64,000 nucleotides of DNA from the NCBI GenBank assembly GCA_963797635.1, contig CAWCPZ010000010.1, positions 204,909 to 268,908 of the forward strand, read 5' to 3'. The DNA is from an uncultured Actinomycetes bacterium (GTDB lineage Bacteria; Actinomycetota; UBA4738; HRBIN12). This document shows positions 3,293 through 44,399 of this stretch, in pieces; position 1 is the stretch's first letter, and each line of letters opens with the position of its first letter. Under the pieces are notes generated by a model that had not been told where the DNA came from, ran no database searches, and was given only the letters and a program-made list of their open reading frames with translations. Position numbers and translations under genes: made by a program.

Positions 3293-3414
3293 GAGTGGCT
3301 CCTTTCCGGGCGTCCATCGCGCCCTCACGGAACGGACCACCCGATGAGGATCGACGTCGGCGCCCGGATCGGCGCCGGCGGCCCGTCCCCGTTCCTCGAG
3401 GGTCGTTCAGCCGA

Positions 3415-22016: not shown

Positions 22017-23091
22017 ATGGAGATCGGCCTCTACACCTTCGCGGAGCTCTACCCCGACCCGCAGACCGGGGAGACGATCAGTGCCGAGCAGCGGATGCGG
22101 AACCTGCTGGAGGAGGTCGAGCTCGCCGACCAACTCGGCCTGGACGTCTTCGGCGTCGGTGAACATCACCGGCCGGACCTGATCGTGTCCTCGCCCGCGG
22201 TGGTGCTGGCCGCCGCAGCGCAGCGCACCGAGCGCATCCGGCTCACCAGCGCGGTGAGCGTGATCAGCTCCGATGACCCGGTCCGGGTGTTCCAGGACTT
22301 CGCGACGCTCGACCTCCTGTCGGGCGGACGCGCCGAGATCATGGCGGGCCGCGGCTCCTTCACGGAGTCGTTCCCGTTGTTCGGCTACGACCTCAACGAC
22401 TACGACGAGCTGTTCGAGGAGAAGCTGAAGCTGTTGATCGCGCTCCGTGAGGACGAACGCCTCACGTGGTCGGGCCGGCATCGTTCGCCGCTGGACGGCC
22501 GGGTGGGCGTCTATCCCCGCCCCGTGCAGGATCCGCTGCCGATCTGGGTCGCCGTGGGTGGCGCACCGGAATCGGCGTTCCGCGCCGGCACGCTGGGCCT
22601 GCCGATGGCGATCGCCATCATCGGGGGCCTGGCCGAGCGGTTCGCGCCCTTCGCCGAACTCCACCACGACGCGGCGCGCCAGGCCGGGTTCGATCCCGTT
22701 CCCCCGATCAGCATCAACTCCCACGGCTACATCGCGGAAACCACCGAGCAGGCGATCGAGGAATCGTTCCCCTACGTGGCCGCGATGATGAACACGATCG
22801 GCAAGGAACGCGGCTGGCCGCCGATGACCCTGGACCAGTACGCGGCGAGCGCCACCCTTCACGGTGCGAACTTCGTCGGCTCGCCACAGGACGTGATCGA
22901 CAAGATCCTGTTCCAGTACGACGTGTTCCACCACGACCGGTTCCTGGTGCAGTTCAGCGTAGGCACGCTGCCGCACGACAAGCTGATGCGCTCGATCGAG
23001 CTCCTGGGCAAGGAAGTCGTGCCCGTCGTGAAGCAGGAACTCGCCCGCCGCCAGGCCGAGTCGCTCCGTGGCTACCAGCCGAGCGCGGTGA
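22017..23091 (+). CDS. LLM-class (luciferase-like) flavin-dependent oxidoreductase, likely F420- or FMN-dependent; 3' end uncertain
   Basis: Starts [54 protein letters not shown].... The printed frame has no stop until 23369 and would run 300 bp into the convergent ATPase gene. A stop exists at 23089-23091 in the adjacent frame, so I suspect a terminal frameshift. Confidence 0.6.
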
Positions 23092-23593
23092 CGATCTGGA
23101 GTGCGACCTCGCGGATGGAGCCGACGTTCTCGAAGGTGAGATCGCCGACGGTGTCGCCGCGGCCCTCGGCCACCTGTCGTTCGGCTTCGGCCAGGTCGTC
23201 CTGCCGTCCAGCCGTCACCGATACGGAGAGCCGGCGTTCGATCTCGTCGAAGGGGAGCGTGAGCCGGACCACCGTGAGCGGCATCGCGAGCGCGGCCCGC
23301 AGGTCGTCCACGTCGCGCTGGGTCTCCATCATGCGCGCCAGCGCGAACCGGCGGACGCCCGTGTCGTAGTAGTTGCCCACGACGGCGTCGACGTTCTTCA
23401 GCATCACGGGCATCCCCGCCCAATGGTCGCCGCCCGAACCAGGGTCGAACCAGCTCAGCCAGTCGAGGTCGATCGCGCCGTAGCGCACGCCGCGCGCTTC
23501 GAGGATGTCGGCGATCTCCTCGATCGCCGAGGTCTTGCCCGTGCCGAAGGCGCCGGTGACCAGCACGGCTTCGGCGTCGGGGCGATCGGCCAT
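23072..23593 (-). CDS. small P-loop NTPase (AAA/kinase-like ATP-binding protein)
   Basis: 173 aa with Walker A ([19 protein letters not shown]) and Walker B-like (IDLDWLSW) motifs. Confidence 0.6.
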
Positions 23594-23599
23594 CGGGGC

Positions 23600-24049
23600 C
23601 TAGCGAGCCTTGCCTTCGCGGAGCAGCGACATGGACTTGTCGATCCGGCGCTGCCGCGTCTCGGCGGCCTTCGCGCCTTCGATCGACTCCACGTGCCAGC
23701 GTTGCAGGCTGTAGCTCAGACCGCCGAAGAACGCCTCCGCCGAGGGTTCCGCGGCGAGCGCGGCGGCGAAGTCCTCCGGGACCTCCACCTCCCGCGGTGC
23801 GGTGTCGAGCGTGACCTCGACGTCGACCACGTCGCCGGCCGACACGCCCGCGGCCGTCCGGTGCTCGGCGCTCAACGGGAGCATGAACACGTCGCCGTAG
23901 GCTGCCACCGTGCTTCGGTAGGTGTGCGCACCGATCGTGACCTGCACGGGCGGTCGCTTGCCCTTGCCGAGTTCCTCGACGACCTTGGCGGGGACCGGGA
24001 TGCCCGTGGCGGTCTTGCCGTTCAGCTGGATCGTGGCGCGGAATCGCAT
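23600..24049 (-). CDS. YdeI/OmpD-associated family protein (DUF1905 + DUF1801)
   Basis: Start at ATG 24049 (MRFRATIQLNGKTATGIPVPAKVVEELGKGKRPPVQVTIGAHTYRS...). The C-terminal LSYSLQRWHVESIEGAKAAETRQRRIDKSMSLL is typical of this family. Confidence 0.65.
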   Translation of the reverse strand: MRFRATIQLNGKTATGIPVPAKVVEELGKGKRPPVQVTIGAHTYRSTVAAYGDVFMLPLSAEHRTAAGVSAGDVVDVEVTLDTAPREVEVPEDFAAALAAEPSAEAFFGGLSYSLQRWHVESIEGAKAAETRQRRIDKSMSLLREGKAR

Positions 24050-24063
24050 GGCGACATCTTCGC

Positions 24064-24853
24064 TCAGCCGAAGAACTCCTCCAACACGGGAGCCATGGCC
24101 TCGTCCGTGACGCCGTGCGTCTGGCCCTCGAGCGTTCGGTAGCGGGCGTTGGGCAGGACCGTCGCCAACGCACGTGCCGCGTTGCGCGCCCAATCGGGAC
24201 TCGCGCCGCCGTCCATCACCAGGGTCGGCATCGTCACGGTGGCCCACCGCTCACCCTGGAGCGGGCGGCCCGTCATCGTGTCGCCCATGACCCTGCCGTC
24301 GTAGACCAGGGTGTGCGCCATCGCTTCCATGGCCGGCCAGAACGGCGCGCTCCGCATCGACGCCACGGTGTCGGCCGGCGCCGCCGCCCCCGTGGTCATG
24401 AAGTACTCGACGGCATCGCCTCGCCGGTCCCCGGCCACGAGATCGGTGAGCTGTGCCACGTAGTCCGGCGGGAGCGGGGGGCGGCTGTCGTCCACGACGA
24501 ACGGCGGTTCGTAGAGCGCGAGCCGATCGATCGGGAGGCCCCGGGATGCGGCTTCGAGCGCGAGGACGGCGCCGGAGGAGTGCCCGTACACGCACGCCCG
24601 GCCGCCGGCGACCTCGAGCACGGCCGCGAGGTCCTCCACCTCACGCTCGACGGCGTACGGCGCGGTGTCGCCGCTCGATCCACGTCCCACGACGGTCGTA
24701 GACGAACACGTCGCACCGCGCGGACAGGAGGGTCGCGAGCGGTGACATCGCCGCGGCGGTCGTGAGCGCGCCACCCACGAACACGACCGCGGGACCGGCG
24801 CCCGATCGATCGAACGCGATCGTGGCGCCGTCCCGCGACCGGACGTCGTTCAC
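24064..24853 (-). CDS. alpha/beta hydrolase; frameshifted near 24690
   Basis: The N-terminal part (MNDVRSRDGATIAFDRSGAGPAVVFVGGA...CDVFVYDRRG) and the rest (RGSSGDTAPYAVEREVEDLAAV...VYGHSSGAVLALEAA...) are in adjacent frames. Deleting one G in cgtcgtggga restores the frame. It is a paralog of the gene at 32836..33612. Confidence 0.65.
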
Positions 24854-26229
24854 GCCGGGTCTCTCGGCGGGATGTTCTGGTTCAGGTGGAACAGGTTGGT
24901 CGGGTCGTACCTGGTCTTGATCTCCGTGAGGCGCTCCCAGGTGGGTCCGGGGTAGGCGTCGTGCACCCGTTCAGCACCTTCGTCGTTCACGAAGTTGACG
25001 TAGGCGCCGTGGTCATCCTGCAGCAGCGCCTGGTGGAACGCCTCGACCCATGCCTCCCGGTCCCCCCGTTGATCCGGGTGGTCGACGAAGGCGGCCAGGT
25101 TCACCATGATCTTGCTGCCGCGGTGCGCGAATGCGGTCGCATCGGCCGGGACCCGAGCGATGGCGCCACCGAGCACCCGGAGTTGTGCGACCCGCATCGA
25201 GGCATCGGACGCCTCGAGGTGTTCGAGGATCGTCTCCGCGACCGAGTGGTCGATGCCGTCGACGAACATCGTGCGGCTGATGGCGACAGGGTGGTAGTCC
25301 TCGTCCTCGGGCATGTACATCTGCGGGTACGGGATCGCCCCCAGCATGTCGGCGATGGGCTCCGCCAAGGCTCGGAACGGTGCCAGCGCCCGTTCGCCCG
25401 CCTCGGCCTCGCCCGCGAACGTCATGAAGGCCAGCACCACCAGCGTGCCCTGCACGGCCTCCGGTACGAACGGCGCCGGGGGTGCGGGCATCACGTTCGC
25501 GATCGTCGAGAGCTCATCGGGAGCGCGGTCCGCCTCGGCGATGAATCCGGCGATCACATCGGCGGACGCGGGCAGCATCAACATGCCGCCCACCACGGTC
25601 CCGACCGGATGCAGGCGCAACTGCAGCCGGGTCACCACACCGAAGTTGCCGCCGCCTCCGCGGATCGCCCAGAACAGATCGGGCTCGTGGTCGGCGTCGA
25701 CCTGCCGGATCCGGCCGTCGGCGGTGACCACCTCGGCGGCGAGCAGATCGTCGATCGTCATGCCGTACTTGCGTGACAGGAACCCGACGCCGCCGCCAAC
25801 CGTGATGCCGCCGATCCCGACCGACCCGGCGTCGCCGAAGCCGGTGGCGAGGCCGTGCGTGCCGGCCTCGGCGGTGTACTCGGCGGCGGTCAGGCCCGGT
25901 TGCACCCACGCCGTGCGGGCATCCACATCGATCTCGAGCGCCCGCAGATCTCGCAGATCGAGCAGGATGCCGCCCTCGGTCGTGCTGTGACCCGCACCGC
26001 TGTGACCGCCGCTCCGGACGGCGAGTTCGACGCCGGTCTCGCTGGCGAACATCACCGTCCGCGCCACGTCGTCGGCATCGGCCGCCATCACGATGGCCGC
26101 CGGCCGGCGGTCGATCCCGCCCATGAAGGCGGTGCGCCGCTCGTCGTAGTCGTCGTCGCCGGGCACGATCACCCGGCCGCGAACGCGGTCGTCCAGGTGT
26201 GATCGCGTGATCGTGGGTTGCGTCGTCAT
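24850..26229 (-). CDS. FAD-binding oxidoreductase (PCMH-type FAD domain, BBE/vanillyl-alcohol-oxidase-like)
   Basis: 459 aa with FAD-binding motifs (...VRSGGHSGAGHSTTEGGILLDLR..., ...IRGGGGNFGVVT...). Its stop is coupled to the downstream hydrolase start. Confidence 0.85.
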   Translation of the reverse strand: MTTQPTITRSHLDDRVRGRVIVPGDDDYDERRTAFMGGIDRRPAAIVMAADADDVARTVMFASETGVELAVRSGGHSGAGHSTTEGGILLDLRDLRALEIDVDARTAWVQPGLTAAEYTAEAGTHGLATGFGDAGSVGIGGITVGGGVGFLSRKYGMTIDDLLAAEVVTADGRIRQVDADHEPDLFWAIRGGGGNFGVVTRLQLRLHPVGTVVGGMLMLPASADVIAGFIAEADRAPDELSTIANVMPAPPAPFVPEAVQGTLVVLAFMTFAGEAEAGERALAPFRALAEPIADMLGAIPYPQMYMPEDEDYHPVAISRTMFVDGIDHSVAETILEHLEASDASMRVAQLRVLGGAIARVPADATAFAHRGSKIMVNLAAFVDHPDQRGDREAWVEAFHQALLQDDHGAYVNFVNDEGAERVHDAYPGPTWERLTEIKTRYDPTNLFHLNQNIPPRDPA

Positions 26230-26239
26230 GGTTCCCTCC

Positions 26240-26725
26240 TCAGTCGTCGTCGTCGTGCCGCGCCTTCAGGCTCTCGCCCTGCTGCTTGCCCACGACACCC
26301 TTGAGCGTGTCGAGGTAGTCGGGCCAACCGCCCATGAAGTCGTCGCGGTCCTCTTCGCGCTCGAACCCGGTCTGCACCATCGTGAGCAGCGTCTTGCCGT
26401 CCTGGTCCTCGAAGGTGAGCGTCATCTCGGTGTCGACCGAGCGCCCACCCCATTCGGCGACCTTCATGGAGTGCCGGAACACCAGACGGTGCGGTCGATC
26501 CACCACGGTGAACACGCGCGTCTCGACGTCGGGCTCGACCCCTTCGGGCCCCATCGAGTAGGTGGAGGTGCCGCCCACGCGGACGTCCGTCTCGGCTCGT
26601 TGGATGGCCCACCCCTCGGTGCCTTCACCGTGGAGTTCCGCTTGGTTGGCGGGATCGGTGAACGCGTCGAAGACCACCTCGGGTGGCGCGTCGTAGAGGC
26701 GTTCCAGTCGCAGTTCGTAGGTCAT
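26240..26725 (-). CDS. SRPBCC family protein (AHSA1/Aha1-like activator of Hsp90 ATPase homolog domain)
   Basis: Start at ATG 26725 (MTYELRLERLYDAPPEVVFDAFTDP...). This is the usual partner of the upstream ArsR. Confidence 0.75.
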   Translation of the reverse strand: MTYELRLERLYDAPPEVVFDAFTDPANQAELHGEGTEGWAIQRAETDVRVGGTSTYSMGPEGVEPDVETRVFTVVDRPHRLVFRHSMKVAEWGGRSVDTEMTLTFEDQDGKTLLTMVQTGFEREEDRDDFMGGWPDYLDTLKGVVGKQQGESLKARHDDDD

Positions 26726-27063
26726 CGGTTCCCCTTCCCTTCCTTCGTGCGTTCGACGATCTGGCCCAGCCGGTCGAAGCGACGCTCCCACTGCAGCCGG
26801 TACACCTCGATCCACCGCGAAACCTCATCCATATCCCCGGCCTCGAGACGGCATTCACGTGTGCGCCCCTTTTTCTCGGTGGTCACGAGCCCGGCTCCTT
26901 CGAGGATGCGGATGTGCTTCATGACGCCGGGCAGCGAGATGGCAAGCGGGCGAGCGAGTTCGCTGATCGATGCCGGCCCGAACGACAGGCGCTCGAGGAT
27001 GTCGCGGCGCCTCGGGTCCGAGAGCGCCGAGAACGTCCGGTCGAGGGTCTGAGACTGAACCAT
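26722..27063 (-). CDS. ArsR/SmtB family transcriptional regulator
   Basis: Start at ATG 27063 (MVQSQTLDRTFSALSDPRRRDILERLSFGPASISELARPLAISLPGVMKHIRILEGAGLV...), which contains the winged-helix ArsR motif. Its stop overlaps the start of the SRPBCC gene. Confidence 0.8.
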   Translation of the reverse strand: MVQSQTLDRTFSALSDPRRRDILERLSFGPASISELARPLAISLPGVMKHIRILEGAGLVTTEKKGRTRECRLEAGDMDEVSRWIEVYRLQWERRFDRLGQIVERTKEGKGNR

Positions 27064-27133
27064 CTGGTTAAGTATCGCCGTCGAGGGCCGAAGCGTCAAC
27101 CGGTCAACGCGTCCCGCCGAATCGTTCCTCGGG

Positions 27134-28327
27134 ATGACGCCGGGCGCCCGGCGGACCGTTACCGTCCAGGTCGTGGAACGACGCACGTGGTGGGAGCGCC
27201 TGCGCGGGATCAACCCGCTGGTGGTGGACGGGCTCCTCGCCGCGACGATCCTGGGGCTCTCCCTCTTCGCAGCGACCCTCGGTCCCGAGCCGGTCGACCG
27301 CCGCGATCCCGACGCCTTCGCGTTCCTCCTGATCGTTCTCGGATGCGTGCCGCTCATGTTCCGCCGTCGGGCCGCTCTGCCGGTGCTGTGGATCGTGTGC
27401 GCATCGGCGATCGCCTATGCAGCGTTCGGCTACCCGGACAACCTGGTCGTGTCGCTGGTGCTGGCGACCTACACCGCCGCCTCGCTTGAACCGCGTGAGC
27501 GGGTCCGCACCCTCGTGGCACCGGTCGCGCTGGTGGCCGGGATCGCGGCGCAGCTCGCCGCGCAGACCGGCTTCAACTGGCTCGAGGTCGTGGGCGGCGT
27601 GACCTTCTCGGTGGCGATCCCCATCGCCGTCGGTCGCGCGGTCTTCAACCGTCGGCGGCGCCTGCGCGAGGATCGGGAACGGATGGCCCACGATGCCGTC
27701 GTGCAGGAACGGGCCCGCATCGCCCGTGAGCTGCACGACGTCGTCGCGCACGCGATGAGCGTGATGATCGTCCAGGCCGGAGCCGCCAGGACCGTGGTCG
27801 AGCGCGATCCCGGTGAGGCAGCGCGGGCCCTTCGTCGGATCGAAGACACCGGCCGGTTCGGCATGGCCGAGATGCGCCGGCTGATCGGGGTGTTGAAAGC
27901 CGGAGATGAGGAAGCCGAGCTGATGCCCCAGCCGGGACTCGCACAGCTCGACCAGCTGCTCGAGACCGTTCGGAGCGCCGGCTTGCCCGTCGAGGCCGTG
28001 ACCGAGGGCACACCCCGGCCGCTGCCTCCCGGTGTCGAGCTCACCGCCTACCGCGTCGTGCAGGAGGGATTGACGAACGTGCTGAAGCACGCCGGCGGTG
28101 CGCATGCCCGCGCCACGGTGCGCTACGAGGAGGACGCGATCGCGGTGGAGGTGGCCGACGACGGTCGCGGGGCGGTCGTCGACCCGAACGGCACGCCCGG
28201 CCACGGCCTGCTCGGCATGCGCGAGCGGGTCGCGGTGTTCGACGGCACGCTCGAGACCGGCGCCAGAGCGGGCGGCGGCTTCGTGCTGCGCGCCCGGATC
28301 CCGCTGGACGCCGAGGTGGATGGATGA
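27134..28327 (+). CDS. sensor histidine kinase (HisKA_3/NarL-type partner)
   Basis: N-terminal TM helices, H-box ([23 protein letters not shown]) and ATPase region ([13 protein letters not shown]...DDGRG...[11 protein letters not shown]). Confidence 0.8.
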
Positions 28328-28980
28328 GCACCACGGTGTTGATCGCGGACGACCAGGCCCTGATGCGGGGTGGGTTCCGCATGATCATCGACGCCGAACC
28401 CGATCTCGAGGTGGTGGGCGAGGCGATCGACGGCGCCGACGCCGTGCGGGGGTTCGAGCGGCTGCGGCCGAACGTGGTCGTGATGGACGTACGGATGCCC
28501 ACGATGGACGGGATCGAAGCCACCAGGCGCATCACCGACGCGGAGCCCGACGCGAAGATCCTGATCCTCACGACGTTCGATCTGGACGAGTACGTGTTCC
28601 AGGCGCTGCGTGCGGGTGCGAGCGGGTTCCTGCTGAAGGACCGTCCGCCCGAGGAACTGGTGGAGGCGATCCGGATCGTGGCGAGCGGCGACGCGCTGTT
28701 GGCTCCATCGATCACCAGGAGGCTCATCGAGGAGTTCTCCCGGCGACCCGTGGCGCCCGCTCCACCCGCCGAGCTGGCCGAGCTCACCGACCGCGAACGG
28801 GAGGTGCTGGTGCTGATGGCGCGAGGACTGTCGAACGCCGAGATCGCCGCCCAGCTCTTCGTCGCCGAGACCACGGTGAAGACCCACGTGGGCCGGGTGT
28901 TGCACAAGCTCCGGTTGCGTGACCGCGCGCAGGCCGTCGTCCTGGCGTACGAATCCGGCCTGGTCCAACCGGGCGCGTAG
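28324..28980 (+). CDS. response regulator, LuxR/NarL family
   Basis: REC domain ([14 protein letters not shown]...VMDVRMP) plus C-terminal LuxR HTH ([36 protein letters not shown]). Translationally coupled to the kinase. Confidence 0.9.
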
Positions 28981-29029
28981 TCGGCCCGCCGCCACGGGCG
29001 TCCTCCTGGGGGATGACCTCCGAACGGTA

Positions 29030-29052
29030 CCGGGGGCCGACGCGGCCCCCGG
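29030..29052 (+). terminator. GC-rich hairpin (CCGGGGGCC-GACGC-GGCCCCCGG) between the TCS and ABC genes; possible intrinsic terminator or attenuator
   Basis: Perfect 9-bp stem with a 5-nt loop and no U-tract, as is common for high-GC actinobacterial terminators. Lies 50 nt after the RR stop. Confidence 0.3.
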
Positions 29053-29105
29053 CCACCCGCTCCTAGCGTGGAACCCGACGGGAAGTCCACGTGAAGGAGA
29101 GGACG

Positions 29106-30056
29106 ATGATGAGCACCATCGAGGCGGGTCCCGGACCGGCGGACCTTCGGCACGACGCACCGGGATCGCCGGCCATCGTTGCGAGGGGACTCACGAAGCG
29201 CTTCCGCGCGGTCACGGCCGTCGACGACCTCAGCTTCGAGGTTCGACCGGGTCGGGTGACCGGGTTCCTGGGACCGAACGGCGCCGGGAAGAGCACGACG
29301 TTGCGGATGCTCCTGGCCTTGGTGAAGCCCACGTCCGGCACGGCCACCGTGCTGGGCCTGCCGTACGCGAGCCTGGCCCAGCCCACCCTCGCCGTCGGCG
29401 CCGTGCTGGAGGTCCAGAGCTTCCATCCGCTGCGCACCGGGCGGAACCACCTCCGGGTGCTCGCCGCCGCCGCGGGGTTGCCCGACGCGAGGGTCGCCGA
29501 GGTGTTGGACCAGGTGGGCCTGACCGATGCGGCCGACCGCAAGGCCGGGGGATATTCGCTCGGCATGCGGCAGCGCCTCGGGTTGGCCGGCGCGCTGCTC
29601 GGCGATCCACAGGTGCTGATCCTGGACGAACCGGCGAACGGCCTGGACCCCCAGGGCATCCGGTGGCTGCGCGAGTTCCTGCAGTGGTTCGCGGGTCGGG
29701 GCAACGCGGTGCTGGTGTCGAGTCATCTGTTGTCGGAGATGGCGCTGATGGCCGACGACGTGATCGTGATCGACCACGGACGGCTGATCCGCCAGGGCAC
29801 GGTGGCCGAGCTCACGGCCGGCGGTTCGCACCTGCGGGTCGCCTCGCCCGACCACGACGCGCTGGGTCGCGCCCTGATCGCGGCCGGCCTGGAACCACGG
29901 GCCGACGACGAGGGGGGCTACCTGCTCGAGTCCGCCGACCCCGAGCGGATCGGGCGGATCGCGCTCCAAGCAGGGGTGGCGCTGTCACGGCTGAGCATCG
30001 AGGAGACGAGCCTCGAGGACGCGTTCCTCGAGATGACGGAAGGGATCGGACGATGA
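29106..30056 (+). CDS. ABC transporter ATP-binding protein (ABC-2/DrrA-like)
   Basis: Walker A (GPNGAGKSTTLRML), signature (LGMRQRLGLA) and Walker B (ILDEPANGLD) motifs. Start at ATG 29106. Confidence 0.85.
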   Translation: MMSTIEAGPGPADLRHDAPGSPAIVARGLTKRFRAVTAVDDLSFEVRPGRVTGFLGPNGAGKSTTLRMLLALVKPTSGTATVLGLPYASLAQPTLAVGAVLEVQSFHPLRTGRNHLRVLAAAAGLPDARVAEVLDQVGLTDAADRKAGGYSLGMRQRLGLAGALLGDPQVLILDEPANGLDPQGIRWLREFLQWFAGRGNAVLVSSHLLSEMALMADDVIVIDHGRLIRQGTVAELTAGGSHLRVASPDHDALGRALIAAGLEPRADDEGGYLLESADPERIGRIALQAGVALSRLSIEETSLEDAFLEMTEGIGR

Positions 30057-30793
30057 GGTACGCGATGAGGTCGGAGTTCCGCAAGCTGATGACCACCCGA
30101 ACCGTGTGGGGTCTGCTCGCCGGGGTCGTGGTCTTGACCGGGCTGGGCGCCTGGGGAACGCTGCTCGGCCCGAACACGGTGGCCGGCGCGGCGTTGGAGA
30201 CGCTGCCGCTGTTCATCGCCGCGATCGTGGCCGTCACCGTGATGGCCCTGGTGCTCGGGGTGCGCACGTACACCGACGAGGCCCGGCACGGTTCGATCGT
30301 GCCCACGCTGCTCGCGACCCCGGAGCGCCGTCGCGTGATCGCCGCCAAGCTCGTCGTCGTGTCGGGAGCCGCCGCGGTCTTCGCGATCGTTGCCGCGGTC
30401 GTGGGAGCCGGCTTCGGCGCGATCTGGTTCGCGGCACATGGGACCGCGCTCACGGTCGGTGCGGGTGCCCTGGCACTGCTGGTGGGCAAGATCGTGCTGA
30501 TCGCGATGGCCTGGTCGATGATCGGTCTGGGCGTGGGATCGGCGGTGGGCCATCAGGTGGCCGCCATCGTCGGCTCGCTGATCTACCTGTTGGTGGTCGA
30601 GGACCTGATCGGGGCGCTCCTGCCGGGCGTGGCGAAGTTCCTTCCCAGCAACGCCGCCGACTCCGCGGTCGGGATGTGGGCCTCCGACGCCAACCTCTTG
30701 GCGCCCGCGCTGGGAGCGCTGCTGTTGGCGGCGTGGGTCGCGGCCTTCGTCGTGGCAGGGACGAGCCGATTGCAGCATCGGGACATCAGCTGA
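30053..30793 (+). CDS. ABC-2 family transporter permease
   Basis: Start ATG 30053 overlaps the ATPase stop. 246 aa with 6 predicted TM helices. Confidence 0.7.
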   Translation: MRYAMRSEFRKLMTTRTVWGLLAGVVVLTGLGAWGTLLGPNTVAGAALETLPLFIAAIVAVTVMALVLGVRTYTDEARHGSIVPTLLATPERRRVIAAKLVVVSGAAAVFAIVAAVVGAGFGAIWFAAHGTALTVGAGALALLVGKIVLIAMAWSMIGLGVGSAVGHQVAAIVGSLIYLLVVEDLIGALLPGVAKFLPSNAADSAVGMWASDANLLAPALGALLLAAWVAAFVVAGTSRLQHRDIS

Positions 30794-30821
30794 TCAACGG
30801 TCGTGAGACGATGCCTGGGTC

Positions 30822-32070
30822 GTGAGCAACGTCCACCATCCACGTCTCCAGGCGGTGGCCGAGGAAGACCGGGTCACGCAGATCGAGCTGTTCTTCGATC
30901 TGGTGTTCGTGTTCGCGATCACCCAGGTGACGGCGTTGATGGCGGACGACCTGACAGCCCGCGGCGTGCTCCGCGGGCTGTTGGTGTTGTCGCTCCTGTG
31001 GTGGTGCTGGGTGGGCTACGCCTGGCTCGGCAACGTGGTGCGGGCCGACGAAGGGCTGGGCCGCGTCACGATGTTCGCGGGGATGGCCGCCATGTTCGTG
31101 ATGGCGCTCAGTCGTGCCGGAGGCCTTCGTCGACAACCCGGAGGGTGGCCTGAGCGGTCCGGTGGTGTTCGCGTTCGCGTACCTGGCCGTGCGGTTGCTG
31201 CATCTCACGATCTTCTGGCTCGCCGCCGGCTCGAACCTCGACTCCGGCCTGCAGGGACAGCTGATCCGGTTCGCGCCCTCGGTGCTCGGGAGCACGGCGC
31301 TGCTGCTGGTCGCGTCACAGCTCGAAGGCCGCGCGCAGACCCTCACGTGGGTGGCGGTCATCGTGGTGGATCTCGGCGGCACGCTGCTCGCGGGCGCCTC
31401 CGGCTGGCGGCTGAACTCCGCGGCGCATTTCGCCGAGCGACACGGCCTGATCATCATCATCGCGTTGGGGGAATCGATCGTGGCGATCGGCCAGGGCGTG
31501 GCCCGGGAACCGATCTCGTGGCCCGTGATCGCCGCGTCCGTCCTGGGGCTGACGGTGGCGGGCTGCCTGTGGTGGGCCTACTTCGACGTGATCTCGTTGA
31601 TCGCCGAGCGGGTGTTGCGTCGCGCACAGGGCGAGGCGCGCACGCGGCTCGCGCGCGACGCCTACAGCTACTGGCACCTGCCGATGATCGCCGGCATCGT
31701 CCTGCTCGCGCTCGGCCTGAAGAAGGTGCTGGAGTACGTCAGCGACACGAGCCACCACACGTTGTCCGAGGCGCTCGACCCGCTCCCGCTGGCGGCCTTG
31801 TACGGGGGGGTCGCGCTCTTCCTGCTGGGGCACGTGGCGTTCACCTACCGGGTGGAGCACCTCGTGAAGGTCCAGCGGGTGGTGACCGCGCTCGTGGTGC
31901 TCGCGCTGATCCCGCTCGCCGCGCAGATCCCGGCGCTGGCGGCGCTCACGCTGGTGGCGGTCATCCTGGTGGCGCTGATCGCGTTGGAATCGGTGTGGTT
32001 CCGCGACTCACGCGAGCGCATCCGCCACGAGGAGGACGACGCGATCTCGCACCTTCAGCACGGCGGCTAG
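30822..32070 (+). CDS. low temperature requirement protein LtrA-family membrane protein; frameshifted near 31110
   Basis: N-terminus MSNVHHPRLQAVAEEDRVTQIELFFDLVFVFAITQV... is typical of LtrA. The continuation (VPEAFVDNPEGG...LLHLTIFWLAAG...) is in the adjacent frame (track ORF 31114..32070). Confidence 0.65.
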
Positions 32071-32100
32071 CGCCAGCTCGCGCGGCGAGTGTCGAGCTGC

Positions 32101-32778
32101 TCAGGTCCCGGGCGCACGCACGCCGACCTCGTCGAGGTGGGCGAGCAGGTCCGCGGGATCCGCGTACACGCGATAGGCGCCCGCGCGGGCGAGTTCCTCT
32201 TCGCCGTAGCCGCCGGACAGCAGCCCCACGCCGAGTGCGCGGGCGCGCCGCGCGGCGAGCAGGTCCCACACGCTGTCGCCCACCACCACGGAGTCCTCGA
32301 TGTCGGCCCCGAGCTGTTCGGCGGCCGCCAGGAACAGGTCCGGATCGGGCTTCGCGTGCGCCACCTGGTCGCGGGTCACCACCGGCACCCCGTCGGGCAC
32401 ACCGAGCAACGCGATCATGGGCGCCGCGCTCTCGATGTAGCCGCTCGTCGCGATCGACCATCGGACGCCGTACTCGGTGAGCGTCGCCAGCAGGTCGATC
32501 GCCCCCGGCAGGGGCCGCACCTGGTCCAGTCGCTCCGCGTAGGCCTCGGCGTGATACCGACGGAGCAGGTCGGCGTCCTCGGGCGTCACGGGCCGACCGG
32601 TCTCGCGCAGCATCGCGTTGGCGAGCAGACCGCCGCTCATGCCGATCCGCCGGTGGATACGCCACACGGACAGGTGGATGCCGTCACGCGCCAGGGCTTC
32701 CTGCCAGGCGAGCACGTGGTGATAGACGCTGTCCATCAGCGTGCCGTCCAGATCGAACAGGAACGCGGGACCGGCCAT
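32101..32778 (-). CDS. HAD family hydrolase (phosphatase / beta-phosphoglucomutase-like)
   Basis: Motif I (FLFDLDGTLMDS), motif II (SIATSG), and motif III/IV (K...GDSVWD). Confidence 0.8.
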   Translation of the reverse strand: MAGPAFLFDLDGTLMDSVYHHVLAWQEALARDGIHLSVWRIHRRIGMSGGLLANAMLRETGRPVTPEDADLLRRYHAEAYAERLDQVRPLPGAIDLLATLTEYGVRWSIATSGYIESAAPMIALLGVPDGVPVVTRDQVAHAKPDPDLFLAAAEQLGADIEDSVVVGDSVWDLLAARRARALGVGLLSGGYGEEELARAGAYRVYADPADLLAHLDEVGVRAPGT

Positions 32779-32835
32779 GTCTGAGCACTCTAGGCCGTGC
32801 GTGGACCCGCTGCCTGGGCGAACCCGAGCAGGCGG

Positions 32836-33612
32836 TCAGGCGGCGAAGAACGCCTCCAGCGCAGGCGTGATGACCGAGGGATCGACGTCGTGCGTCTGCC
32901 CCTCCAGCAGACCGTGCTGTCCGTTCGGGAGCAGGTCGGCCATCGCTCGGGCCGTCTGATCCATCCACGGGAAGCTCGCGCTCCCCGCCAGGACCAGCGT
33001 GGGGGTCGAGACCGACGCGACGAGCTCGGTGGGCATGGTGTAGTCGCCCATCACGGTGGCGTCGTAGGCCAACGTGTGCGCCAGGGCCTCCGTGGGACCC
33101 CAGAACGGCGCGTTCTTCGCCTGGGCGACGAACTCGTCGGGCATGCCCACCACCTTCGACATGAAGAACTCGACCGCGTCGCCACGACGATCCTCGGCCA
33201 CGAGTCGCCGGTAGGTCTCCGCCGTGTCGGCCGGAGGGCGCGGGAGCCCCTCCGGGATGTAGGGCGGCTCCCACAGGGCGAGCTTCGTGATGCTGTCGAG
33301 CTTCGCCGCCGCCTTCAGCGCCAGCACCGCCCCCGAGGACGTGCCGTACAGGAACGCCGAGCCCCCGGCCGCGTCGACGACCGCGGCGATGTCTTCGATC
33401 TCACGGTCCACGGCGTAGGGCTGGGTGTCACCGCTGTCGCCGCGACCACGGCGGTCGTAGTTGAAGGCCGTGTGGTCGGCCGCCAGCAGCTCGGCAACCG
33501 GTGCGTTCGACATGCGGTCCACCGACCCGCCGCACACCAGGACCACGGGAGGGCCTTCGCCGAGCCGGTCGTAGCCGATCGCCGTGCCGTCGTTCGATGT
33601 CACGTGTTCCAT
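32836..33612 (-). CDS. alpha/beta hydrolase (paralog of 24064..24853)
   Basis: Start at ATG 33612 (MEHVTSNDGTAIGYDRLGEGPPVVLVCGG...YDRRGRGDSGDTQPYAVDREIEDIAAVVDAAGGSAFLYGTSSGAVLALKAA). Nucleophile elbow GTSSG. Confidence 0.75.
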   Translation of the reverse strand: MEHVTSNDGTAIGYDRLGEGPPVVLVCGGSVDRMSNAPVAELLAADHTAFNYDRRGRGDSGDTQPYAVDREIEDIAAVVDAAGGSAFLYGTSSGAVLALKAAAKLDSITKLALWEPPYIPEGLPRPPADTAETYRRLVAEDRRGDAVEFFMSKVVGMPDEFVAQAKNAPFWGPTEALAHTLAYDATVMGDYTMPTELVASVSTPTLVLAGSASFPWMDQTARAMADLLPNGQHGLLEGQTHDVDPSVITPALEAFFAA

Positions 33613-34139
33613 CAGCTGTCCCCGTCCTGGTCGTGACGCGCCTTCAGGGTCTCGCCGCCGACGTGCTCGGCGAGCCGGTCGAAGAAGATCAGCGAGCCGC
33701 GCATCGCGCGGGAGTACTCGTCCGCCGGCAGGTTGCCGCCGCGCTGGGTGAACGTCATCTCGGTGCGGCCGTCGCCGATGTCCTTGAACTCGGCGGTCAG
33801 GACCTCGACGTTGCTGGTGGTGCCACCGGGGTCCGCCAGCGTCATGACCACGCGCTCGGGTTCCACGACCTCCCGGAACTCCCCCGCGAAGGGGATCTCG
33901 ATCTTGTCGGGACCGTGCAGCATCACGGCGCTCCACGCGCCGCCGGGCCGTGCGTCCATCTCGATGCGGTCGAGCGGGATCGAGGAACCGTGCTCACCGA
34001 ACCAGGTGGCGAAGCGTTCGGGCTCGGTCCACGCCTTGAACACGAGCTCGCGCGGGGCGTCGAACACGCGCACGATCTCGATGCCGTTGCCGTCGCTGTG
34101 GGCGGAGACGACGCCTTCGGGTGGGGTCTGATCAGCCAT
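33612..34139 (-). CDS. SRPBCC family protein (AHSA1 domain)
   Basis: Start at ATG 34139 (MADQTPPEGVVSAHSDGNGIEIVRVFDAPRELVFKAWTEPERFATWFG...). Confidence 0.75.
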   Translation of the reverse strand: MADQTPPEGVVSAHSDGNGIEIVRVFDAPRELVFKAWTEPERFATWFGEHGSSIPLDRIEMDARPGGAWSAVMLHGPDKIEIPFAGEFREVVEPERVVMTLADPGGTTSNVEVLTAEFKDIGDGRTEMTFTQRGGNLPADEYSRAMRGSLIFFDRLAEHVGGETLKARHDQDGDS

Positions 34140-34470
34140 CGGTGGCTCCTTCCTGGATCGATCGGAGATGGTCCTCGAGGCGGTCGAACCGGGGCTCCCA
34201 GAACCGACGGTAGTGGTCCAGCCATGCGGAGACGTCCCCGAGCGGGGCGGCATCCAAACGGCACGGGCGCCATTGTGCGACCCGCCCCCGGGTGATCAGC
34301 GTGGCGCCCTCCAACACGGTGAGGTGTTTGGACACCGCCTGCAGGCTGATCGGGAACGGTTCGGCCAGCTGGCTGACGGTGGCCTCTCCTTCGGACAGGC
34401 GGGACAGGATCGCCCGCCGCGTGGGGTCGGCGAGCGCCCCGAACGTGGTGCTGAGTTGGTCGACCGCCAT
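34132..34470 (-). CDS. ArsR/SmtB family transcriptional regulator
   Basis: MAVDQLSTTFGALADPTRRAILSRLSEGEATVSQLAEPFPISLQAVSKHLTVLEGATLI..., overlapping the start of the downstream AHSA1 gene. Confidence 0.8.
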   Translation of the reverse strand: MAVDQLSTTFGALADPTRRAILSRLSEGEATVSQLAEPFPISLQAVSKHLTVLEGATLITRGRVAQWRPCRLDAAPLGDVSAWLDHYRRFWEPRFDRLEDHLRSIQEGATDG

Positions 34471-34534
34471 CGCGAGATGCCTTCTTCCGTTAATCAACCG
34501 TTAGGTTGAACATAGAGCAACGCAAGGAGTTCCG

Positions 34535-36187
34535 TCAACGTTGATCGTCGTGGGTGGCGCTGACCGAGAGCAACTCGAAGGCTTCGGTCGGCTCACGCTT
34601 GCCCTTCAGGTCGGCCAGCCCCATCGGCCGCACGTCGACGATCACGTCGGGCTCGGTGTTGACCTCGTCCAGGGTCCGGCCGGCGATCGTGATGTGGCCC
34701 GGGGTCGAGAGGGTCTGCAGACGGGCGGCGACGTTGGTCGTGTCGCCGATCACCGAGAACGACCGTTGCGACCCGGCGCCCACGTTGCCGATCACGGCCA
34801 CCCCCGTGTTCACGCCGACACGGAACCGCGGCCAGTCCTCGGACGCGCGCACCTCCGTGGAACGGTCGCGGATCGCGATCGCCGCCCGCACCGCTCTCGC
34901 CGCATGGTCGGGCTGGTCGCCGAGCGCGTTGAACACCGCGAGCACGGCGTCGCCGGCGAACCGTTCGATCAATCCGCCCTCCTCGTCGACGACGAACGGC
35001 ACCACGACACCCCAGTACGCGTTCAACATCTCGATCACCTCTGCCGCCGGCCGGTCCTCGGAGAACGTGGTGAACCCGGAGAGATCCGCGAACAACACGG
35101 TGACCTCCTGCTCCTGCCCGCCCAGCTGCGCGAGCTCGGGTTCGGCGTCGAGACGGTCGGCCAGGTGCGGGCTGACGTACTGGCGCAGCAGCCGGTCCAT
35201 CCGCGCGAGCTCGCGCGCCGAGTCCGTCATGACGGCCACCTGGTCGCCGGTGAACCCTTGCTGACGGAGTTCCTCGCCGGTGCTGCCGAGGGTCCCCGAG
35301 GCGTCGGCACGCACGAGCTCGGCGAGCGCGGCCGATTGCCGATGGTCGAGCCGCTCCAAGGTGCGTTCCAGGTAGATGCCGCCGAAGGTTCCCGACGCGG
35401 TGCGCGCATGGCGGTACTCGTGCCGGGCAGCGAGCACGATCGTGGCGAACGCGATCGCCATCAGCACGTGCCACTCCCACCACGATGCCTGCCACGCGCG
35501 CCCGAACGCCATGGCGATCAGGGCCTCGGCGAGGAACACGAACGCCACCGCGACGGCCAGCGGAAGGGGGCGGCGGCGTGTGCGATAGATCCGCAGGTAC
35601 CGCCACGCCGCGAACAGGTAGGCCGCCACGGCGAACGGCAGCAGGACCAGCAGCCACGGCGCGCGTTCGGACTCGATCACGCGATCGAGCGGTCCGAACC
35701 CGGCCACCGAGGCCGTCGCCCACACGATCAACACGACGACCAGGCCCACGCGCATCGGCGCCTGCAGCCGACGCAGCGTCGCCTCGGTGCGCTCGTCCAT
35801 CTCGATCGCGGAGAGCGCCGCGAACCCCGCGGCCAGGATGAGTCCGGCGGGGGTGGCCAGCACGAACCCGCCGTTCGGCCCGTCGAGCACCACGCCGGGT
35901 GTGGCGAGCGCGTGCAACGCCAGGAACCCCGCGCTCGTGAGCAGCACCATCGACACCAGGAAGAGCCGTTCGTCGCCGCTCCGCCGCGCGACCTCGCTCA
36001 CGATCAGGCCGAGGGCCACGTTGAGCAGGGCGACGCCGAACACGAGCCAGAAGTGCGATGGATGGTGCTCCCAATGCACGTCGAGCGACGGGAACCCCAG
36101 CATCAGGGCCAGTCCCGCGAGCGGGACGATCAGTGCGGCCGCGAGGAACCAGGGTGAGGGCCCCGCGGTGCGGGACGCGTGTTCCAT
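34535..36187 (-). CDS. membrane-anchored class III adenylate/guanylate cyclase
   Basis: N-terminal 6-TM domain followed by a cyclase homology domain (VTVLFADLSGFTTFSE...RFAGDAVLAVF...VGVNTGVAVIGNVGA...SVIGDTTNVAARL). Same strand as, and immediately downstream of, the HK at 36230. Confidence 0.8.
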   Translation of the reverse strand: MEHASRTAGPSPWFLAAALIVPLAGLALMLGFPSLDVHWEHHPSHFWLVFGVALLNVALGLIVSEVARRSGDERLFLVSMVLLTSAGFLALHALATPGVVLDGPNGGFVLATPAGLILAAGFAALSAIEMDERTEATLRRLQAPMRVGLVVVLIVWATASVAGFGPLDRVIESERAPWLLVLLPFAVAAYLFAAWRYLRIYRTRRRPLPLAVAVAFVFLAEALIAMAFGRAWQASWWEWHVLMAIAFATIVLAARHEYRHARTASGTFGGIYLERTLERLDHRQSAALAELVRADASGTLGSTGEELRQQGFTGDQVAVMTDSARELARMDRLLRQYVSPHLADRLDAEPELAQLGGQEQEVTVLFADLSGFTTFSEDRPAAEVIEMLNAYWGVVVPFVVDEEGGLIERFAGDAVLAVFNALGDQPDHAARAVRAAIAIRDRSTEVRASEDWPRFRVGVNTGVAVIGNVGAGSQRSFSVIGDTTNVAARLQTLSTPGHITIAGRTLDEVNTEPDVIVDVRPMGLADLKGKREPTEAFELLSVSATHDDQR

Positions 36188-39589: not shown

Positions 39590-39976
39590 TCAGCGGCCGT
39601 TGATGTGCAGGATGTTGCCGTCCGGATCCTTGAACCACACGCCCTTGAAGCCGTCGGCGACGTGGACGTCTCCGTCCAGCGTGAGGCCCGGCAGGTCGTA
39701 GTGCTCGAACGTGACGCCCTTGGTGGTGAGGTCCTTGAAGATCGTGTCGAAGTCCTCGCCCACCGACCACGCCAGCGCGTTCGCCTGGTTCGTTCCGGCG
39801 TAGGCGGACTCGTAGACCATGATCGGGGTCTGCCCGCTGCGGTAGTTCACCATCCCGTCCTGGTCAGCCGCGTCGGCTACGAACCCCAGCGTTCCTTCGT
39901 AGAACGATCTCGCTGTGGTGACGTCCTTCACGGCGAGCATCGCCGTCGCATCCATCTCGTTCAGCATCCACATCAC
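39590..39976 (-). CDS. VOC family protein (glyoxalase-like)
   Basis: 128 aa, ...AVKDVTTARSFYEGTLGF..., with two beta-alpha-beta-beta-beta halves. Confidence 0.75.
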   Translation of the reverse strand: MMWMLNEMDATAMLAVKDVTTARSFYEGTLGFVADAADQDGMVNYRSGQTPIMVYESAYAGTNQANALAWSVGEDFDTIFKDLTTKGVTFEHYDLPGLTLDGDVHVADGFKGVWFKDPDGNILHINGR

Positions 39977-40542: not shown

Positions 40543-42469
40543 ATGGAGTCCGCGTTCGAAGCACCCACGGCCGAGCTGTTGCTGGACACGAAGACGCCGG
40601 CGGAGCTGGCGCTCTCGCCCGACGGATCGAAGCTGGCGTTCTCGTTGCACGCGACCGTCGCCGACGTCGGGTCCTATGTCCCGTGCGATCTCTACGTGGT
40701 GGATACCGGATCCGACGCCGACCCGGTGCAGCTCACCGACGGGGCGTTCGCCGACGTGCTGCCGGCCTGGTCGCCCGACGGTTCCCGGCTGGCGTTCCTG
40801 TCCGATCGCATCACGTCCGGGCATCAACTGCCGTACACGATGCCGGCCGGCGGTGGCGAACCGACGCTGGCGGCCACGCTCGACCGGTTCGGCCGAGAGC
40901 GTCGCGTGGTCGGGCGACGGGAACCGTCTCCTGGTGCTCGCCGCCGATCCCGGTTCCTACGGGCTGGACTGGGGAGCGCGTGCGGTCCGTGGCGCCGAGC
41001 CCGAGTCCGATCCGATCGTGCGGCGGCCGGGCGATGCGCGGCGCCGACTGTTCCTGATCGACCTCGGATCCGGAGACGTCACGGAGGTGGGTCCGCCCGA
41101 CCTCAGCATCTGGGAGGTGGACTGGGACGGCGATCACACCGCGGTGGCGGTCGTCGCCACCGATCACACGGGATCGGGCTGGTACCAGGGCGTGGTGGCG
41201 CGGCTCGATCTGCAGGCGCGCACCGCACACACGCTCTACGAGCCCGAGTGGCAGATGGAGGGGTTGGAACGCTCGCCCGACGGCACCCGTGCGCTGATCG
41301 TGGAGGGATACGCCAGCGACCATGGGCTGCTCGCCGGCAGCATCATGGTGATCGACGTCGCGACCGGCGAGACCTCCGATCCCTGGCCCGACCTGCAGTC
41401 GGTGGGCCTGGCGTCGTGGTGCGACGACGATTCGATCTGGTACGCGAGCACCGACGGCACCGGGAACGCCTGCGGCCGCATCTGGCTCGACGGCCGGCAG
41501 GAGGAACGCTGGCGCGACGACGCGTTCATCGGCGACGCCGTCACCACCCCGGCCTGCGTGATCAGCGAGGGTGCCGCCGACGTGTGGACCACCCACCAGG
41601 CGCACGCCACACCGCCCGAGCTCGCGCGGTTCGACCACGACACCGGTTCCTGGGTGCGCCGCACCTCGTTCAACGACCACATCGTGCGCGGGCGCGTGTT
41701 CCCCGACGCACGCACGATCCGGTGGATGGGCGAGGGCGACGTCGAGATCGAGGGCGTGTTGATGACGCCGCACGGCGCGGAGGGGCCGCTGCCGCTGATC
41801 GTCGGCGTCCACGGCGGTCCCACGTGGAACTGGGGGTCCTACTTCTCCGATTCCGAACCGAACGCGGTGCTGCTGGCCTCGGCGGGCTACGCGTGTCTGC
41901 TGCCGAACCCGCGCGGGAGCATCGGGCGCGGCCACGTCTTCAACCAGGGCGTGATCGGCGACGGGGGCGGGATCGACTTCCGCGACATCATGGCCGGGGT
42001 CGACCACGTGATCGCCGAGGGCATCGCCGACCCCGACCGGTTGGGTATCGCGGGCTTGTCCTACGGCGGCTACATGGCGGCGTGGGCGGTTGGCCAGACC
42101 GACCGGTTCGGCGCGAGCGTCGCGATGTCGGTGGTGTCGAACTACCTCTCGTTCCACCTCACCTCGGAGGTGTGGTGGTACGACCACGCGATCCTCGAGG
42201 GCGACTGGCACGACCCGGCGAGCCAGTACATGGACCGCTCACCGGTGACGCACGCACACAAGGGGTCGACACCCACGCTGATCCTGCAGGGTGCGATCGA
42301 CCGGTGCACCCCGGTGAGCCAGGCCGACGAGCTGTTCACCGCGATCGCCGAGACCGGCACCGAGGTCGAGCTGGTGGTCTACCCGCGCGAAGGCCACGTG
42401 CCGCTCGAACGCGGCCACGCCCTCGATGCGATCCGGCGAACGCAGGAGTGGTTCGACCGCCACCTGTAG
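40543..42469 (+). CDS. S9 family peptidase (prolyl oligopeptidase/dipeptidyl-peptidase-like: beta-propeller + alpha/beta hydrolase); frameshifted near 40890
   Basis: The N-terminal 115 aa (MESAFEAPTAELLLDTKTP...WSPDGSRLAFLSDR...) are in the frame of track ORF 40525. The remainder (SAESVAWSGDGNRLLVL...GLSYGGYMAAWAV...catalytic GxSxGG, D, H) is in the frame of track ORF 40676. One extra C near GACCGG. Confidence 0.75.
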
Positions 42470-44319: not shown

Positions 44320-44399
44320 GGATAACGTCTCCCTTATAGAACGACGATAGTTATACATGCCTGGACGGTGCTCCGTCAAGGCGTTTCGACATGGAGGCG

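Follow-up and report, generated by a model that had tools for sequence, protein, structure and literature searches.

Gene pairs in which an ArsR-type helix-turn-helix (HTH) repressor is followed by a protein of the COG3832 family were described as a module in a survey of 750 genomes (Makarova, Wolf, Koonin 2009, Biol Direct 4:19; PMC2701414). The survey presented them as two-gene units resembling toxin–antitoxin (TA) systems, mostly chromosomal, patchily distributed and prone to lineage expansions, with ArsR proteins devoid of metal motifs; its authors considered antibiotic resistance the most plausible role (PMC2701414). Here we describe three such modules in a stretch of 64,000 nt from an uncultured Actinomycetes bacterium (GenBank assembly GCA_963797635.1, contig CAWCPZ010000010.1, positions 204,909 to 268,908), called the window below. 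In each of them an ArsR gene is followed by a gene for an AHSA1 protein (PF08327) of the SRPBCC/START fold.

Such ArsR–AHSA1 pairs are among the commonest conserved gene pairs of soil bacteria whose function is unsolved: in a protein library clustered at 50 % identity, the AHSA1 profile matched 15,688 cluster representatives at E ≤ 0.001. The pair of Mycobacterium tuberculosis has been tied to dosR/phoP control and to persisters. Rv2034, the repressor of that pair, is a dimer that represses its own transcription and binds CCGTAAGT-N4-ACTTACGG across the promoter (Gao et al. 2012, PMC3338718). The single cysteine of Rv2034, C61, is needed for DNA binding, and the protein did not respond to seven metals (PMC3338718). 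In Frankia, a large group of ArsR proteins is encoded in putative operons with AHSA1 and has no link to metal transport (PMC4531530).

The pairing in the window is the known ArsR–COG3832 module, to which the locus adds three members and no new principle. What is new here is a predicted AACC-N4-GGTT operator at the -10 box of two of the promoters, those of ArsR1 and ArsR2, and an LKARHD tail at the C-terminus of the AHSA1 proteins.

Three operons and their predicted operators

We lean, by a small degree, towards reading the locus as three separate, autorepressed, non-metal operons of the ArsR–COG3832 type, with AHSA1 as their first output. An ArsR dimer would bind an inverted repeat built on the core AAC-N6-GTT. 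This repeat abuts the -10 hexamer in operons 1 and 2 and would cover the transcription start there, so that binding would block RNA polymerase at the repressor's own promoter. The inducer that lifts repression would be a small molecule, hydrophobic or reactive, from among xenobiotics or antibiotics and not a metal. The universal first output would be AHSA1, whose helix-grip fold would serve to bind, sequester or neutralise this compound. Chemical inactivation may then be added by the cargo: an EncM/McrA-like flavin oxidase, a serine hydrolase and YdeI-like and P-loop proteins in operon 1, a serine hydrolase in operon 2, and PhnB-like and glyoxalase VOC proteins in operon 3. In this scheme the inducer and the part played by AHSA1 are putative, as are autorepression and the binding of ArsR to DNA.

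The operators carry the first part of this reading. A sigma-70-like scan of 22.8-34.7 kb returned only two promoter matches (0.5 expected), one before ArsR1 and the other before ArsR2. The AACC-N4-GGTT core likewise has only two sites in the 64-kb window (0.3 expected), and both abut the -10 boxes of these promoters. Phylogenetic footprinting found ACTTAACC-N4-GGTTCAGT to be kept in 6 of 6 ArsR1-type orthologous loci. Upstream of most ArsR2-type genes, across phyla, it yielded the consensus (TA)TTCAACC-N4-GGTTGAA(TA), with a TTAACC/GGTTAA variant in Nocardia and Acidobacteriota. The predicted cross-phylum consensus TTCAACC-N4-GGTTGAA is usable for regulon prediction. The promoter element of operon 1 is also kept in orthologous loci, and since the ArsR1 ATG lies only 8 nt downstream of the -10 box, the arrangement suggests a leaderless mRNA.

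The promoter of operon 3 was missed by the strict scan. After it lies an ATAAC-N6/7-GTTCTATAAG-N6-GTTAT block (44354-44322), with the common AAC-N6-GTT core, and this promoter/operator region is kept in three related loci (L122, L124 and L006). Taken together, the sites predict DNA binding by the ArsR proteins and autorepression through promoter occlusion.

The proteins themselves are winged helix-turn-helix proteins of the ArsR type. They match HTH_5/HTH_20 above the Pfam cut-offs and NF033788 with 67-84 bits (cut-off 55), and the best match in the Protein Data Bank is 3f6o (E = 9e-33). The window ArsRs exceed the cut-off of the NCBIfam model for the metalloregulator ArsR/SmtB subfamily, which speaks for classical metal-responsive ArsR/SmtB operons. 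We regard that reading as highly improbable. In an alignment of 63 module ArsRs there is neither an alpha3N CxC motif nor the Asp/His/Glu set of alpha5 metal ligands; the sole invariant histidine, His49, lies in the recognition helix, and a cysteine in the wing, Cys70, is present in 46 of the 63. The NCBIfam equivalogs for metal sensors (CmtR and others) all score far under cut-off for the window proteins, and Pfam annotation of the three operons shows neither a metal transporter nor a reductase. Additionally, the homologue Rv2034 is insensitive to Zn, Ni, Co, Cd, Pb, Cu and Mn (PMC3338718).

Gene calls rest on a high third-position G+C of the reading frames (the window has about 70 % G+C) and on a check by homology. 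A tblastn search of the whole 64 kb found exactly three ArsR and exactly three AHSA1 copies, all within 21 kb. The calls for HTH_20/HTH_5, AHSA1 (PF08327), Abhydrolase_6, FAD_binding_4 with BBE, DUF1905 with OmdA, 3-dmu-9_3-mt and Glyoxalase are supported by Pfam matches above the cut-offs. An earlier reading of this DNA, made from the letters and their reading frames (the sequence-only reading), had placed the genes that it listed on the minus strand at the same coordinates and assigned them to the same families, and in this our analysis agrees with it (Table 1).

The same reading had the genes of each operon joined by overlapping start and stop codons. This stands for ArsR1/AHSA1-1 and ArsR3/AHSA1-3 (ATGA, 4 nt each), ArsR2/AHSA1-2 (8 nt), AHSA1-2/Hyd2 (TGATG, 1 nt, with the Hyd2 ATG) and the junction of the FAD-linked oxidase (FADox) with Hyd1, where the GTG start of Hyd1 lies over the FADox stop (GTGA). 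It does not stand for AHSA1-1/FADox, where a 10-nt gap holds a GGAGG ribosome-binding site. The proposed extent of operon 1, from ArsR to the YdeI-like gene, also proved too short: the operon runs on into the P-loop gene, which is syntenic in a relative (L001) and is probably the final gene. In operon 2, membership of the HAD gene is doubtful because the gap between the Hyd2 and HAD genes is about 480-500 bp in the relatives L001 and L003.

The interval between these two genes (32779-32835 in the window, 1610-2091 in L001) contains a PNPOx-like gene on the opposite strand in L001, and L003 has a similar gap of about 500 bp. The window and L002 have no extra sequence there, which amounts to a presence/absence polymorphism of about 435 bp and speaks against HAD as a part of operon 2.

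Table 1. Genes, predicted control elements and C-terminal tails of the three ArsR–AHSA1 operons (positions in the window)
Feature	Positions	Strand	Operon	Remarks
Promoter 1	27071-27099	minus	1	TTGACG (27099-27094), 17-nt spacer, GATACT (27076-27071); sigma-70-like scan
Predicted ArsR1 operator O1	27056-27071		1	TTAACC-agat-GGTTCA; adjoins -10 box, overlaps ArsR1 start codon
ArsR1	26722-27063	minus	1	113 aa; predicted ArsR/SmtB-family winged-helix repressor; Pfam
AHSA1-1	26240-26725	minus	1	161 aa; SRPBCC/START-fold protein; PF08327
LKARHD tail of AHSA1-1	26252-26269		1
FADox	24850-26229	minus	1	FAD-linked oxidase, EncM/McrA-like; FAD_binding_4 + BBE (Pfam)
Hyd1	24064-24853	minus	1	alpha/beta hydrolase, GTG start at 24853; Abhydrolase_6
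YdeI-like protein	23600-24049	minus	1	DUF1905 + OmdA; 14 nt past Hyd1
P-loop protein	23072-23593	minus	1	173 aa; sixth gene, 6 nt past YdeI-like gene
Promoter 2	34509-34538	minus	2	TTGACG (34538-34533), 18-nt spacer, TATGTT (34514-34509); sigma-70-like scan
Predicted ArsR2 operator O2	34494-34509		2	TCAACC-taac-GGTTGA; directly after -10 box
ArsR2	34132-34470	minus	2	112 aa; Pfam
AHSA1-2	33612-34139	minus	2	175 aa; PF08327
LKARHD tail of AHSA1-2	33630-33647		2
Hyd2	32836-33612	minus	2	258 aa; alpha/beta hydrolase; Abhydrolase_6
HAD-family hydrolase	32101-32778	minus	2 (doubtful)	57 nt downstream of Hyd2
Promoter/operator region 3	44322-44379	minus	3	TTGACG (44379-44374), 18-nt spacer, TATAAC (44355-44350)
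ArsR3	43924-44319	minus	3	131 aa; Pfam
AHSA1-3	43427-43927	minus	3	166 aa; PF08327
LKARHD tail of AHSA1-3	43433-43450		3
PhnB-like VOC protein	42912-43394	minus	3	PF06983, 3-dmu-9_3-mt
Glyoxalase/bleomycin-resistance-type VOC protein	42379-42888	minus	3	23 nt past PhnB-like gene

AHSA1 as output or as sensor

A scan of a genome collection with the AHSA1 profile gave 80 loci from Actinomycetota, Chloroflexota, Acidobacteriota, Alpha- and Gammaproteobacteria, Gemmatimonadota, Verrucomicrobiota, Planctomycetota and others. They contain 72 junctions at which an ArsR gene lies at most 400 nt upstream of an AHSA1 gene on the same strand, and two to four AHSA1 genes often stand behind one ArsR. Start and stop codons of the two genes overlap at 67 of these 72 places, in 48 cases by 8, 4 or 1 nt. 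The next genes downstream encode a hydrolase, an FAD oxidase, PhnB-like, GFA, SnoaL/DUF4440 or DUF899 proteins, nitronate monooxygenase (NMO) or luciferase-like proteins; MFS, RibD_C, DoxX, glyoxalase, GST, cupin, PNPOx and LtrA genes are found in this place as well. At least two modules share single contigs of relatives (L006, L011, L020/L034). Thus, the view of the sequence-only reading that ArsR and AHSA1 form a portable cassette wired to varied cargo is well founded, and it had been published already in 2009. The distances among ArsR proteins correlate with those among the adjoining AHSA1 proteins (Mantel r = 0.66, a value that 0 of 2000 permutations attained), and the pair has therefore been inherited or transferred as a unit.

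The AHSA1 proteins match PF08327 with E-values of 1e-20 to 1e-25. An AlphaFold2 model of AHSA1-2 (mean predicted local distance difference test score, pLDDT, 82) shows a helix-grip fold, with a beta-sheet and a long C-terminal helix. Its best Foldseek match is 1xuv (E = 3.5e-12, TM 0.72-0.77), and the closest structures are uncharacterised structural-genomics proteins. Remoter matches include CalU16 and DynU16, encoded in the clusters for the enediynes calicheamicin and dynemicin.

Several observations favour AHSA1 as the output. Most modules consist of just two genes (PMC2701414), and a sensor–repressor pair of this kind would lack an output if ArsR had no distal targets. A single ArsR often precedes two to four AHSA1 genes, and fused multi-AHSA1 proteins are common: the best representatives that the AHSA1 profile matched in the protein library clustered at 50 % identity (P0241-P0390) are proteins of 300-655 aa with two to four tandem AHSA1 domains. 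The ArsR family usually places the repressor first and resistance genes after it, so that the regulator-first order is normal and no sign of a complex. Further support comes from the CalU16/DynU16 structural neighbours and from cargo that resembles detoxification or resistance genes (mitomycin radical oxidase, bleomycin-resistance-type VOC, a weak Gar/GrdA match).

The sequence-only reading had instead assigned the sensing of the effector to the AHSA1 fold. Ligand-loaded AHSA1 would bind or release a sensor-less ArsR and thereby derepress the operon. Plant PYR/PYL START receptors, which gate a partner protein, offer an analogy. What speaks for this model is that the minimal ArsR has no visible ligand site, an absence common to the window alignment and to earlier work (PMC2701414; PMC3338718). 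The near-universal pairing with mostly overlapping start and stop codons, the co-divergence of the two proteins and the fused HTH+START protein Rv0576 (PMC13525633) speak for it as well, and the conserved, low-confidence C-terminal tail on the AHSA1 proteins of this lineage could be a docking peptide. The two-gene modules, the multiple AHSA1 genes behind one ArsR and the ordinary gene order count against it, and no ArsR–AHSA1 fusion was present among the best 120 ArsR or AHSA1 matches or in the fetched loci. We consider the model a serious rival, albeit the less likely one. In general, the evidence fits AHSA1 as the primary output equally well, or slightly better, than AHSA1 as the sensor.

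The tail deserves separate attention. The three window AHSA1 proteins end in (S/T)LKARHD plus acidic or hydroxyl residues, despite being only 28-36 % identical elsewhere. Its lineage-wide form, (E/G)(S/T)LK(A/T/S)(R/H)HD followed by acidic/hydroxyl residues, occurs in every AHSA1 paralogue group of this actinomycete lineage (among the fetched loci, in L001-L026, L033, L036 and L122-L124) and is occasionally doubled in tandem (LKGRHDTDLKARHDTDT). It was absent from the AHSA1 homologues compared in Nocardia, Chloroflexota, Acidobacteriota and Proteobacteria; the exhaustive search for AHSA1 representatives, dominated by proteins with two to four domains, says little on the tail in diverged single-domain homologues. 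In the AHSA1-2 model the tail comes after the portion of the last helix that is predicted with confidence, and its own pLDDT is below 50.

Two explanations of the tail were rejected. A cause at the DNA or RNA level does not agree with the synonymous positions at which the three copies differ, and these codon differences show selection on the peptide. A general C-terminal tag of the lineage does not agree with the search of the window plus about 1 Mb of fetched loci, in which every genuine occurrence is at an AHSA1 C-terminus. A short linear motif that docks AHSA1 on the sensor-less ArsR, or marks AHSA1 for regulated proteolysis, is conceivable, but we would give it a low chance. For proteolysis, the reported pupylation of Rv2035 in M. 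tuberculosis may be compared. If either function is true, ArsR–AHSA1 would be a two-protein ligand switch, not a repressor plus effector.

The cargo suggests organic small-molecule chemistry (xenobiotic or antibiotic stress) rather than metal handling, because of its oxidase, hydrolase, VOC and Gar/GrdA-like matches. FADox aligns over its full length with EncM (E = 3e-94); a match to mitomycin radical oxidase has E = 2e-54, and the score for the BagK/FevA1 equivalog is below the cut-off (267 bits vs 800). The full-length identity of Hyd1 and Hyd2 is 51 %, and both keep the nucleophile elbow (GTSSG/GHSSG, G-x-S-x-G) and EGQTH with the C-terminal histidine; Hyd2 matches an uncharacterised structure, 3r0v, with E = 5e-113. 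The P-loop protein gave a weak, sub-threshold match to the Gar/GrdA gentamicin-resistance ATP-binding family (E = 2e-5). In operon 3 the PhnB-like gene is the conserved third gene, and the ArsR3–AHSA1–PhnB-like triad is also present in L006, L122 and L123. The glyoxalase VOC gene is variable cargo, missing at this position in L122.

Some side observations concern the same genes. Unless it arose as an artefact of read-through, a database homologue of 417 aa (P0127), in which a Hyd1-like hydrolase is fused to DUF1905/OmdA domains, ties two neighbouring genes of operon 1 together. In operon 3, the glyoxalase-type gene shares about 90 nt (42379-42469) with the 3′ end of a convergent S9 peptidase gene, and it has two more paralogues in the window, at 50618-51022 and 39614-39931 (46 % and 33 % identity).

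A type II toxin–antitoxin-like system, in which AHSA1 would be the toxin and ArsR its antitoxin and autorepressor, was predicted from the two-gene structure, patchy distribution and lineage expansions of the module (PMC2701414). It could also draw on M. tuberculosis, where persisters show induction of Rv2034-Rv2035, and where pupylation of Rv2035 has been reported (PMC3968373). However, the COG3832 protein of Stenotrophomonas maltophilia was non-toxic, both in an E. coli kill-rescue assay and when induced in S. maltophilia itself (PMC7650669), and the longer enzyme operons that the window pairs head are unusual for TA loci. The modules are chromosomal and hold syntenic positions in relatives, and the authors of the prediction themselves preferred a resistance function (PMC2701414). 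We find this reading scarcely credible.

Several points weigh against three autorepressed operons with AHSA1 as output. It is hard to see how a minimal ArsR with no visible ligand site would sense an organic inducer on its own, which favours the co-sensor model, and Rv0576, a natural HTH+START fusion, hints at a direct partnership (PMC13525633). Co-divergence of ArsR and AHSA1 is explicable by mere co-inheritance of neighbouring genes. The operator candidate of operon 3 is only loosely palindromic, a double half-site whose site A has an N7 instead of an N6 spacing, and a terminator scan found no terminators delimiting the operons. The cargo annotations are at family level, with every NCBIfam equivalog match far under cut-off. 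Finally, the organism is uncultured and the window proteins are known from sequence alone.

Divergence of the copies and breaks in reading frames

The sequence-only reading had seen a duplicated operon architecture and proposed that local duplication would fail if the copies were no closer to each other than to pairs elsewhere. Comparison with other genomes gave just this outcome and speaks against a local origin. The ArsR copies of the window are 37-56 % identical to each other and the AHSA1 copies 28-36 %, and database searches place each copy in its own orthologue group at 70-99 % identity, made up almost entirely of metagenome-assembled genomes of uncultured soil Actinomycetota. BLOSUM62 distance matrices were made for 63 ArsR–AHSA1 pairs, and for each window copy its paralogues in the window come 40th-59th (ArsR) and 26th-56th (AHSA1) among the 62 others; the sample is skewed to AHSA1-2 relatives, which inflates the close neighbours of copy 2, and the ranks of copies 1 and 3 agree. 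The window copies are thus farther from each other than from most pairs of other genomes, including those of other phyla. ArsR2, for instance, shares 67-71 % identity with ArsRs of Nocardia, Acidobacteriota and Binataceae vs 48-56 % with ArsR1/ArsR3.

Recent local duplication of one operon could account for the same gene order, for the paralogous hydrolases and for the position of all three modules on a single strand of a 21-kb region. More distant relatives even have module types side by side on one strand in the 3-2-1 order of the window (types 3+2 in L006, 2809-5504; types 2+1 in L011, 4670-10075), which may reflect an ancient tandem array or a preferred integration region; in the window they are set apart by 6-8 kb of other genes (44319 to 24064). 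An ancient tandem origin in an ancestor of this lineage is therefore conceivable. The low identities, the ranks and the outside affinities of ArsR2 argue against a recent event, and so do the hydrolases. Hyd1 and Hyd2 belong to different orthologue groups, FADox and Hyd1-like genes form an independent conserved pair in metagenomes with no ArsR/AHSA1 nearby (L093, L098, L101), and most metagenomic Hyd homologues stand alone, with ArsR/AHSA1 at 0 of 40 metagenomic hydrolase loci. We judge recent duplication very unlikely. The three pairs are anciently diverged and not recent local duplicates, and like operon layouts in one region need not stem from duplication.

ArsR–AHSA1–hydrolase as a general triad was rejected on the same 0 of 40 loci. 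The ArsR2–AHSA1-2–Hyd2 triad was found in 10 loci of the genome-collection scan, two of them from Chloroflexota, and is confined to AHSA1-2 relatives.

Hyd1 is split over two frames, with the first 55 codons (GTG 24853 to ...VFVYDRRG) in one and the rest (RGSSGDT...) in the other. The break is a +1 frameshift, a single extra G in a G run near 24686-24688 (CGTCGTGGGACG in the window vs CGTCGTGGACG in L001). In L001, a syntenic contig of a close relative (ENA ERZ25039555 contig_20138), which shares 93-97 % nucleotide identity across both operons 1 and 2, the gene is intact and encodes 262 aa. The motif YDRRGRGxSGDT, quoted in the sequence-only reading for the paralogy of the two hydrolases, straddles this frameshift, which had been overlooked; the paralogy itself is upheld by the identity of 51 %. 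The frameshift is probably an assembly or sequencing indel more than a true pseudogene. Sequencing error is suggested by the presence of indels in both assemblies: in the window the LtrA gene (30822-32070, plus strand) is also broken, near 31114-31145, and lies in two frames vs a 415-aa orthologue in L001, and in L001 the FAD oxidase is split into 165 + 293 aa.

The reading frame of a luciferase-like monooxygenase (22017-23369, plus strand) is longer than its orthologue in L001 (321 aa): about 100 codons follow the end of the alignment between the two, and about 300 nt of the frame lie over the P-loop gene. A further indel or a lost stop codon may be the cause. No Rfam RNA element was found in or near the three operons, and no tRNAs within the window. 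A cobalamin riboswitch candidate at 3432-3505 (minus strand), upstream of a minus-strand gene at 2294-3340, scores exactly at the Rfam gathering threshold (31.5 bits).

Comparison with described systems

Among SRPBCC proteins, CalC and CalU16 share the helix-grip, AHSA1-like fold with the window proteins and provide a precedent for a resistance effector (cited in PMC2701414), but sequence identity is only 16-17 %, and there are no polyketide synthase (PKS) or enediyne genes among the annotated neighbours in the window, such as a CalC-type cluster would have. Rv0576 likewise combines winged-helix DNA binding with a small-cavity START domain as one functional unit, whereas in the window HTH and START are separate, translationally coupled genes. 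The Frankia survey gave the pairing only, without an operator, phylogeny or cargo analysis.

The resemblance to Rv2034–Rv2035–Rv2036 goes further. There, too, the ArsR gene leads, the AHSA1/START gene overlaps it and a third gene stands behind, and the geometry predicted for O1 and O2, an 8-N4-8 palindrome overlapping the promoter, is that of the footprinted Rv2034 site. A wing/beta-hairpin cysteine is semi-conserved in module ArsRs, a point of likeness with Rv2034 and its C61. The operator sequences differ (CCGTAAGT-N4-ACTTACGG vs TTCAACC-N4-GGTTGAA), as does the cargo, and Rv2034 has the distal targets dosR and phoP, whereas the window sites are predicted from the DNA.

With the ArsR–COG3832 module the window pairs share an ArsR HTH gene followed by a COG3832/PF08327 gene, the lack of metal motifs, the presence in several copies and the chromosomal location. 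They differ from it in heading operons of 3-6 genes, not bare two-gene units, in the LKARHD tail of their AHSA1 proteins, which the 2009 survey did not describe, and in the predicted operator defined here. With its three diverged modules, each with a distinct predicted operator and cargo, the locus offers a compact test bed.

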